Shown: positions 32,101 to 35,100 of the stretch, one piece after another
How positions within the stretch are numbered: the first letter of the stretch is position 1
Layout of the letters: every line of letters begins with the position of its first letter
NCBI GenBank assembly: GCA_951406725.2
Contig: OX597830.1
Span: 59,272,001-59,336,000, forward strand
Direction: 5' to 3'
Length of the DNA stretch: 64,000 nucleotides
Origin: Octopus vulgaris
Lineage: Eukaryota
Made by a program: the position numbers and the translations under genes
Notes under the pieces: model-generated
Database searches by the model: none
What the model was told of the DNA's origin: nothing
Seen by the model: the letters and a program-made list of their open reading frames with translations, nothing else

Positions 32101-35100
32101 TATTAGGAACATAAATTGTGACAAAGTTTTGGTGGAAGATTTTAATTTAAACCTTATAAAAACAAGACATTTGTACTACAGAGCTAGAGGCGGTTTCAGC
32201 GGGGTTGGTAATGAAAGGGTTAAGGTTCCAACATTTGCAGGTTGAAGGACTACATAGATTCTCTCCTGATAACTATCTTTAGGGACCAAGAGAGAAGCAA
32301 AGGGAACAGAATGTGTCTTACAAACCTGAATGTGTCGATATCCCTTGAGACGCAAAGAGGAAAGTGATGGTTGTCTGAGGAATTGGTTTCTTTCATCCTG
32401 TTCTGGAACCATTTCACATAATTACATAATTCTGAAAGATGAAAACTACCTTCAAGCATAATGTCTTCACATATACACACACACACACACACACACACAC
32501 ACACACACTCAGACACACTCATTCATGCATAGATACACACACAAGCAGACATACTCATTCATGCACATACACACACACACTCATTTGTGCATGTGCATGC
32601 ACATACCTGCACACACACATAAGCTCACACACATGCATAGAACTCATTCATGTATGCACATGCACGCACACACACATACACACACATATACAAAAATGCA
32701 AATTAAACCATTGTTTTACACCATGGAAAGAGACTATATATCAGGTTGAGGAAAAAGCAATGTTTTGAACCATGAAGAATTTGTACTGGATTTTTGCAGA
32801 GTTTTGAATTTTAAAAAAATATTTTTTTGCAACTGTCTCATAATACAGACATAGACTTGCCCAAATGCATAAAAAAAATTAACATTGATATTTTTTCACC
32901 GTGGTTTCAATCATCTGAAATGGAACTGTCAAAGCACAATGATTCAAGCAATTTTGCTATTCAACTTCAAAAAAGGGCATAAAGCAGCTGAAACTGTTTG
33001 CAATATGAAATGTTTGATGAGGAAATGACCAATGAGCAGTCTACTCAAACATGGTTTAGACAATTTCACAGCAGAGACATGAGCCTTGAAGATTGTGAGC
33101 ATAGTGGACACCCATCTGTCATCATGATGGTCAACTAAAGACCATCATTGACAAAGATCCACGTAAAATCACTCGAGAACTGGCAAAAGAACTTCCAGTT
33201 ACCCAGGAAACTGCCTGCAACCATTTGCATGGGATCAGAAAATCAAAAAAGCTTGACAAATGGGTACCACATGATTTGAATGAAAATCAGAAAATGCGCA
33301 GACATGAAATTTGCTCGTCACTTCTTCTCCATAACCAGACCAATCCATTCCTTGAATGTATTGTAACTTGTGATGAAAAGTGGATTCTGTACATTAATAA
33401 AAAAACATTCTTCGCAGTGGTTGGACCAAAATGAAGCACTGAAAACCTTCCCCAAACCCAAGCTCTTCAAAAAGAAGGTCATGGTGACTGTTTGCTAGTG
33501 TACTGCTGGACTTATCCACTTTAACTTCTTAAAACCTAGATAAACCATTACTGCAGAAACATATTACCATGAAATTGCCAAAAATGAATGAAAATCTGCC
33601 ACTCTTCTGTCACAGATGGTTTACAGAAAAGGGCCAATCCTTCTTCAGGACAATGCTCAACCTCATGTTTCACTAATGATGCTCCAGGAGTGGAGGGAAT
33701 TTGGTTACAAAGTTCTTCCTCACCCAGCTTATTCCCCAGACCTTTCTCCTACCAACTACCACTTTTACAAGCACCTTGATGGTTTCCTATGAGAGGAGTT
33801 CAAAAATCAAACTGATGCTGAAAGTCCATTCAAAGGTTCATCAGCTTCGGAACTCCAGATTTTTATGTTACTGGAATAAACAAACTTGTAGCTTGTTGGC
33901 AAAAATATGTTGATTGTAATGGTGCTTACTTTGATGAATAAAATTTCCACATTGTTGAAATATTTTGTGATGAATTTCATGTTTCAAAACATTGCTTACT
34001 TTTTAGTCAGCCTGATATCTCTCAATCTGAATTCATCTCTATTTTTTACTTAAGTCACCAGTCATTATCAAAAAATTAAAAGGGATTCCCTTCACATGAC
34101 TGGGGAAGATCTCAGCAAGCAGTGATAATCATATCGTTACCAGAAAATATCTATGTATACATAAACAGCCTTTTAGATGTGTACAGTTACTTTAATAGAT
34201 AATGTAAACTATATGCAAAAGGCATAAAATATGTTAAATTTGTAAAGTATAGTTAGCTTGATGTGTAAATTATATATATGTCAGTTGGGTGCAATATATA
34301 TTTATATGTTAGTTGTGTCCATTATATGTGCAACTTACCAACATTAGCTGGAGCAACAGGGATGATATATCCTGCAACAATAATGTCAGACATCGGTCTG
34401 TGAACTACTTGATACAGCACATCATTTATAAGAATTTTTATATATCTTCTGTCTGATTCTTTCACTACCAATAATTGGTACAGCTGAAATTGGTAAATAG
34501 AAGAATGAATGCATGAATGAATGAATGAATGCTTGCATGCATGTAAGTATGTGTGTGTGTGTGTGTGTGTGTGTGTGTGTGTGTGTGTGTGTGTATATCT
34601 GAAATCTAAACTAGCAAGACAACCATGATATAATGCAATGAGCTTTGAAGCAAGAACTGAGCAAATGTTTCTCCCAAAATTTAAATCAACAGTCAAACAC
34701 CTAAATATTGTTGCAAAATTACTGAATGGAGAATCCCGAGAGAAGGACCTGATAATTGAATACTGGTGCAGAAAGTTCATGTTCTACAGAACAGCCTTCT
34801 TTATTCTACTCAAAAGAGCAATGAATGTTGAACTTGGTATTTTTCAGAGCCATTTTCCAAGTCAAGAAATGTTTGTCCTTTTCACACTTCAATAGTAACA
34901 TGAAAAAGGATAAGGATGAACGAAGGATAGAAGATTAAAGGGATATCAATAAGATGTTTACCTGAGGAACAATTTGCAGAGATTCCAAGAGTGCAGCTTT
35001 ACTGTCATCATCATCATCATCATCGATTAACGTCTGTTTTCCATGCTGGTATGGGTTGGACGGTTTGACCGAGGACTGGAGAGCCAGTGGCTGCACATGC

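Follow-up and report, generated by a model that had tools for sequence, protein, structure and literature searches.

A LINE 3' end fragment carried in frame within an exon of a dynein heavy-chain gene in Octopus vulgaris

Does a repeat-derived stretch of DNA inside a dynein exon belong to the messenger and the protein of its host gene, and by what route did it get there? The question is raised by a 64,000-nucleotide stretch of the Octopus vulgaris genome (contig OX597830.1 of assembly GCA_951406725.2, positions 59,272,001 to 59,336,000), which we call the window and to which coordinates below refer. On the minus strand at 35004-35096, 93 bases read as 31 residues in frame and end in seven Asp, which are encoded by a (GAT)6 GAC tail at 35004-35024; the last two Asp codons of the segment may be host-derived. 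When the sequence was re-read, it agreed with the original prediction in the 93 bases, in how they translate and in the open frame that spans them (34938-35318, minus strand); that prediction had proposed that the 3' end of a LINE inserted directly into conserved dynein coding sequence.

The source of the insert could be traced in the window and beyond it. The repeat named as its origin, in the original prediction the commonest RTE-type repeat of the window, does match the insert at its 3' end, both in the copy at 42562-42652 (plus strand), which aligns at 86.8% identity over 91 positions and belongs to the same LINE subfamily, and in the copy at 36155-36258, at 82.7% over 104. Copies elsewhere in the genome match as well, with 92-95% identity for the closest among the 40 of 1790 candidates scored, and among those same candidates the exon flanks matched this locus alone, so that within this search the exon is single-copy. 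When the 31-residue peptide was searched against the genome in six frames, 150,419 first-look candidates came up (150 of them scored), a figure that does not equal a copy number. In longer copies, the shared 3' region is preceded by the end of an ORF: a sister-subfamily copy in the upstream intron (35607-36260, plus strand), used here for comparison, consists of the end of ORF2, the 3' UTR and the tail, and a homologous ORF2 end precedes the tail at loci L002 and L004, which are of the insert's own subfamily. At locus L033, a reverse transcriptase match (RVT_1, E 6e-14) is followed by a PHD-like finger and, in the same locus, by a tail copy, so that a reverse transcriptase frame lies upstream of the same 3' end. 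Together, this frame and the ORF ends indicate that the source of the insert was a LINE 3' UTR with its (GAT)n tail. Judging from familiar motifs and from the label given by the original prediction, the donor presumably belongs to the RTE clade.

The reading frame of the insert is a native property of this 3' end. Over the last 87 nt, the Asp frame is stop-free in 22 of the 27 nearest copies, compared with none and one of the 27 for the other two sense frames, and in most of these copies it stays open for 28 further codons upstream. The LINE 3' UTR also contains an internal tandem repeat of 62-67 nt (35931-36089 and 42246-42485), the copy number of which varies between subfamilies. Other mobile-element remnants were seen in the window. 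An open frame at 4900-5436 (minus strand), for which a Pfam search gave no match, is presumably a LINE endonuclease fragment, and two intronic segments at 33105-33434 (plus strand) and 29476-29892 resemble, by their motif, mariner-type transposase fragments; a Pfam search of one of the two gave no match.

Homologues in protein databases reveal the site before the insertion. P0001, the one match among two candidates, is the same exon read through from genomic DNA; its frame passes the site without a break, and its downstream intron begins at the same boundary. Its flanks are identical to those of the window exon at 73 of 83 residues, and at the site five residues (I-N-K-D-D) stand in place of the 31 of the window, the first inserted codon giving Val in place of the Ile of P0001, a conservative swap at the end of a helix. 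A HMMER search with P0001 added four more distant homologues (P0002-P0005, 26-34% identity; five matches in total, E up to 0.001); in all four, the linker at the site is short and polar, and the exon end is apparently shared. The comparison with relatives that had been proposed as a check found an empty site in five of five database homologues, four of them distinct over the region (two of P0002-P0005 are identical there). As the insert is absent from P0001-P0005, the empty state is ancestral; the site held no intron, and the insertion added 26 residues net. The predicted gain of 93 bp thus stands as the number of bases present and must be lowered to 78 nt relative to the empty site, with five host residues replaced. 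The element did not lie in an ancestral intron and neither supplies nor shifts a splice site, which is at odds with splice-site exonisation; direct insertion, as originally proposed, is shown by the uninterrupted exon of P0001, in agreement with P0002-P0005. Direct in-frame insertion is likewise marked by the empty homologous exon, the match to a dispersed element, the preserved frame and the unchanged host splice sites. In the downstream intron, a region alignable with the intron of P0001 holds an 88-residue open frame on the opposite strand (34629-34895, plus strand), for which a Pfam search gave no credible match.

Transcript coverage over 35004-35096 had been suggested as a further check, and contigs of three of the four runs aligned to 34900-35400 read into the insert; the runs come from a list of 24, none on record as RNA, and the run type is a guess throughout. 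In X1 (organism A), X2 (organism B) and X9 (organism C), a contig begins 44-47 nt inside the insert, crosses the 5' junction and ceases to align at 35308; beyond that point it carries another 183, 124 and 60 letters, respectively, given as lengths without the letters themselves. With the acceptor at 35305, the alignment runs on for three letters, which are identical to the last three of the upstream exon; since 183 + 3 = 186 nt is the length of that exon, the X1 overhang fits the exon at 36696-36881. A second X9 contig (34965-35065) bridges the 3' junction with three gap letters, likely one GAT fewer, and continues for 102 further letters. X1 depth stops at the donor, 34962, and the intron bins of 34900-35400 have zero depth in the runs aligned. 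The GT at 35096 is read through by contigs under three organism labels, and so is, in X9, the AG at 35034. The argument that removing the insert as a 95-nt GT..AG intron would create a TAA is insufficient alone, because 15 other in-frame GT..AG pairs overlap at least 60 nt of the insert without producing a stop. No joint that skips the insert was listed in the four aligned runs; one joint, one gap and 32 loose ends were dropped at the repeat-masked tail, so that a minor splice form could be hidden. The whole insert is spanned by no single contig: the 3' junction is bridged in X9 only, X2 has no cover of the 3' part, and X16 yielded repeat contigs only, which are uninformative as to its organism. 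Organism C differs at 15 of 256 letters (~6%). The insert is likely retained in spliced mRNA and is likely translated into 31 residues. Its presence is confirmed and well supported at the level of both DNA and transcript. As organisms A and C both carry the insertion and P0001 lacks it, the event is older than the separation of A from C and younger than that from the P0001 lineage.

The host exon (34962-35305, minus strand; 344 nt, phase 1 to 0) was delimited by contig ends, splice signals and profile homology and corresponds to the first half of a dynein AAA lid domain. It is preceded by the exon at 36696-36881 (186 nt, phase 1 to 1), supported by splice signals, phase and the X1 overhang, and is followed by predicted exons at 34339-34483 (145 nt, phase 0 to 1, without read support), 32326-32431 (106 nt, phase 1 to 2) and 30285-30537 (253 nt, phase 2 to 0), which were drawn from splice signals and phase, all on the minus strand. 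These five consecutive exons, from 36881-36696 to 30537-30285, have AG/GT ends, agreeing phases and no stops. Farther upstream, a coding stretch at 44737-44967 (minus strand) has dynein heavy-chain homology (E 6.7e-7 to 7KZM), and downstream two Dynein_C matches, at 26220-26456 (minus strand; E 3.3e-4) and at E 0.011, both fall below the curated cut-off. At 9543-11183 (minus strand), an open frame of 547 residues contains a long tandem repeat of 5-residue units and is preceded by a T-rich acceptor-like site; it may be an exon of the host or of another gene, and its Pfam match to CfAFP is probably due to low complexity.

By itself the 344-nt exon matched neither Pfam nor any PDB dynein, and the locus was found neither by a genome search with PF18198 nor by a profile of paralogue exons, which cover mostly the later half of the lid; word-indexed protein searches, with coverage of at most 2000 residues, found no longer homologues. 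A profile built from the exon and the five homologues did match, on both sides of the insertion point, residues 4114-4192 of the outer-arm dynein beta chain in 7K5B (E 2.4e-5), the 12 further matches of the same six-sequence profile were all dyneins, and three of the six members matched PF18198 (dynein heavy chain AAA lid; best E 8.2e-6). The dynein homology claimed for both sides does span the insertion point, but it becomes visible only through the profile. The description of the exon as conserved was not borne out, since the host is a fast-evolving orphan dynein rather than a conserved canonical motor. An AAA1 match ~100 kb upstream on the same strand has Thr for the Walker B Asp and a 13-residue insertion nearby, where a canonical motile dynein would have intact AAA1 Walker A and Walker B motifs; these AAA1 exons likely belong to the same gene, the linkage being presumed. 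In the piece read there (loci L057 and L058, G000:C17:59436210-59440779), no GKT was seen, and an exon boundary cuts Walker A. The degenerate AAA1 motifs suggest that the host gene is an orphan and likely non-motile dynein, similar in this to DNHD1 and DNAHX.

Within the lid, the insertion point falls in the linker Q4175-V4181 of 7K5B chain B, which is Gly- and Gln-rich and lies between two lid segments, and linker length varies among the paralogues of the genome itself (L009 versus L012). The homology supports well that the insert would sit in an inter-helix loop. A surface loop had been predicted; the loop position is backed by the 7K5B alignment and by the variation among paralogues, and surface exposure is what we infer from it. 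Early alignments of the exon to three canonical paralogues (A1, A2 and A3) were out of register and have been superseded by the homologue alignment and the 7K5B profile. Two AlphaFold models built on the misregistered alignments (mean pLDDT 51 and 54) have a helix-coil-helix pattern, which at best supports the loop weakly; when these models were used in fold searches, no match fell below E 0.001 (the top Z, 7.7, went to generic helical bundles), and scores in the ESM Atlas were all under 0.8.

The junctions bear on how the piece arrived, and the original prediction had noted neither the target-site deletion, the likely Asp-Asp microhomology and the upstream likeness in register described next, nor the degenerate state of the host. 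No target-site duplication was found at the insert ends, where a short target truncation was seen instead; the 3' tail is intact and the 5' end truncated, as in target-primed retrotransposition. Short target truncation occurs in 5 of 25 ZfL2-2 insertions in the portion of that study available (PMC2666801). The empty site ends in Asp-Asp, codable as GAT or GAC and known from the P0001 protein alone. Immediately upstream of the insert lie 13 host codons of a lid helix (35097-35135, minus strand) that resemble, in register and at ~60%, the LINE sequence preceding the inserted piece. Over 40 host bases, ~24 match, a score equalled by none of 2000 shuffles and by 4 of 1527 40-mers from the exons of this gene. 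In a comparison with 41 copies, matches were found at 61% of 27 positions in codons whose residues are shared with P0001 and at 55% of 12 positions in differing codons. Because the matches are spread over codons shared with P0001, the host-LINE likeness predates the insertion. That the helix is encoded by another 39 nt of the repeat on its 5' side was ruled out, as 9 of the 13 residues are common to the empty-site P0001. Three adjacent residues at 35106-35114 (minus strand) differ from P0001 (three of the eight left-flank differences), and the first two of their codons closely match the LINE; this patch was possibly copied from the LINE, and distant homologues do not polarise it.

Taking these observations jointly, we consider it probable that a 93-base LINE 3' piece was directly retrotransposed into the dynein exon, replacing five residues, and that it is retained in the mRNA, translated and tolerated, probably in a neutral loop. 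In the route that we propose, the (GAU)n tail of the LINE RNA would pair with the Asp-Asp codons at the nick and prime reverse transcription; sections of one report describe LINE 3' ends that overlap their target by one to several bases (PMC6007223). Priming at Asp codons would place the tail in the Asp frame, the only natively stop-free sense frame of the LINE 3' end. The upstream host end would then join the cDNA by annealing where host codons already resembled the LINE in register, an annealing pathway of 5' joining being outlined in the available text of PMC4245944, and this joining would trim the copy to ~87-93 nt and delete ~9 nt of target, with no duplication. The net gain of 78 nt would keep the frame, Asp priming leaving a one-in-three chance at the 5' end, and the insert would have been fixed by drift before organisms A and C split. 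Against the annealing step, the 39-nt match at ~60% is longer and looser than the overlaps described in the consulted part of PMC6007223, and it fits recombination-type repair equally.

Such repair would begin with a double-strand break in the exon, mended from an existing genomic LINE copy or cDNA: a strand would invade at the ~60%-similar upstream codons and anneal again at GAT/GAC, without endonuclease priming. It would account for the in-register similarity right at the 5' junction, for the loss of host codons and for the absent duplication, and its template pool would be very large (150,419 first-look candidates, again not a copy number). Strand invasion normally needs closer identity than ~60%, which counts against it. 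The piece also ends exactly at the LINE 3' tail, as retrotransposition predicts, although microhomology of the tail could have the same effect, and ordinary LINE insertions show short truncations too, at least in the accessible passages of PMC2666801. We therefore regard repair of a break as an unlikely origin, and direct retrotransposition as the better account of the junctions.

The fate of the insert after its arrival admits other readings as well. That it is mostly spliced out or untranslated, or that the gene is decaying and the open frame incidental, could draw on the 15 in-frame GT..AG pairs that overlap the insert, on the one joint dropped from the listing at the masked tail, on the degenerate AAA1 motifs and on non-significant selection tests of the flanks. 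Constraint on the flanks is weak: the differences between organisms A and C listed in the 5' flank comprise five silent and six residue-changing ones (pN/pS 0.36, p 0.08), and P0001 and the window are identical at 73 of 83 exon residues versus 38 of 51 intron pseudo-residues (p 0.06). Contigs nevertheless pass the GT at 35096 and the AG at 35034 with no skipping joint listed, frames and splice phases are intact across five exons, and degenerate AAA1 motifs also occur in orphan dyneins with cilia roles reported in the available portion of PMC11785096, which leaves an incidental frame very improbable. The opposite reading, that the acidic loop was exapted and is held by selection (it might, for instance, give a non-motile dynein a surface for binding), seems hardly more probable. 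It could explain why the insert stays in frame in organisms ~6% apart, with a gap of exactly three letters in organism C; such a change is expected in a trinucleotide tail, however, and over 72 columns the insert carries four letters other than the commonest one (three residue-changing, one silent), versus a median of 3 for the copies, a biased yardstick in that these were selected as nearest. No second exonic case was found in 20 copies, which also speaks against exaptation. Given the lack of constraint relative to other copies, the variable linker and a gene that tolerates other insertions, an insert that is tolerated and drift-fixed is the best reading, and tolerance is likelier than function.

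A search for further inserts of this kind had been suggested for the proteome. Run here on the 147 other scored genome matches to the peptide, of which those with the 20 longest open frames were inspected, it found no second exonic insert; in all 20 the repeat runs on upstream of the piece, unlike in the dynein, and these 20 sample only a very small share of the family. A speculative and rather doubtful extension is that, through (GAT)n priming at Asp codons and its natively open last ~59 codons, the LINE family repeatedly supplies proteins of this lineage with poly-Asp loops in frame, which would make it the animal equivalent of the palindromic elements of Rickettsia, with the dynein as the first visible member.

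Most animal retroelement-derived coding sequence that has been described entered via splice sites or protein ends. The dynein case is clean and datable and has an empty site, and here a LINE 3' UTR was inserted directly in mid-domain and became fixed. The rule suggested by it is that pairing of a triplet tail with matching codons sets the frame, so that only the 5' junction is left to chance. On the practical side, masking of repeats would break up or corrupt the model of this gene. Literature searches, supplements aside, listed no report of this dynein insertion, and the passages searched in octopus repeat papers do not mention dynein.

Known systems resemble this case in part. Among octopus LINEs of the RTE clade, RTE-2_OV and others have a reverse transcriptase followed by a zinc-finger-like domain and a 3' microsatellite (PMC9115989, in the sections available), as does the donor LINE, the finger being PHD-like in the donor and C2H2 in RTE-2_OV when compared by description. 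Alu-derived sequence in principal human isoforms (PMC6924539) is likewise a non-coding retroelement piece in a main coding isoform, and the Alu inserts of TKT and ADARB1 lie in loops or disordered regions, as the dynein insert lies in a loop. The 11 human cases in the portion of that study at hand, however, consist of new exons, extended exons or changes at the ends, none of them described as stop-free with the same exon on both sides, whereas the dynein insert altered no splice site. In p97Bcnt of ruminants (work cited in PMC4613681), LINE sequence was also recruited into a host protein, but there it was the element's own coding domain, the RTE-1 endonuclease, in a duplicated gene, and here it is a 3' UTR and tail in a single-copy exon. 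For DNHD1 and DNAHX, the accessible text of PMC11785096 gives degenerate AAA1 motifs and motor-domain insertions like those of the host gene, a likeness of features, and does not describe those insertions as LINE-derived, unlike the dynein insert. The dynein insert works like the palindromic elements of Rickettsia (PMC10969869, in the part available) without being one of them: those are bacterial, palindromic and MITE-like, with many coding insertions, whereas the dynein carries the 3' tail of a eukaryotic LINE in one case.
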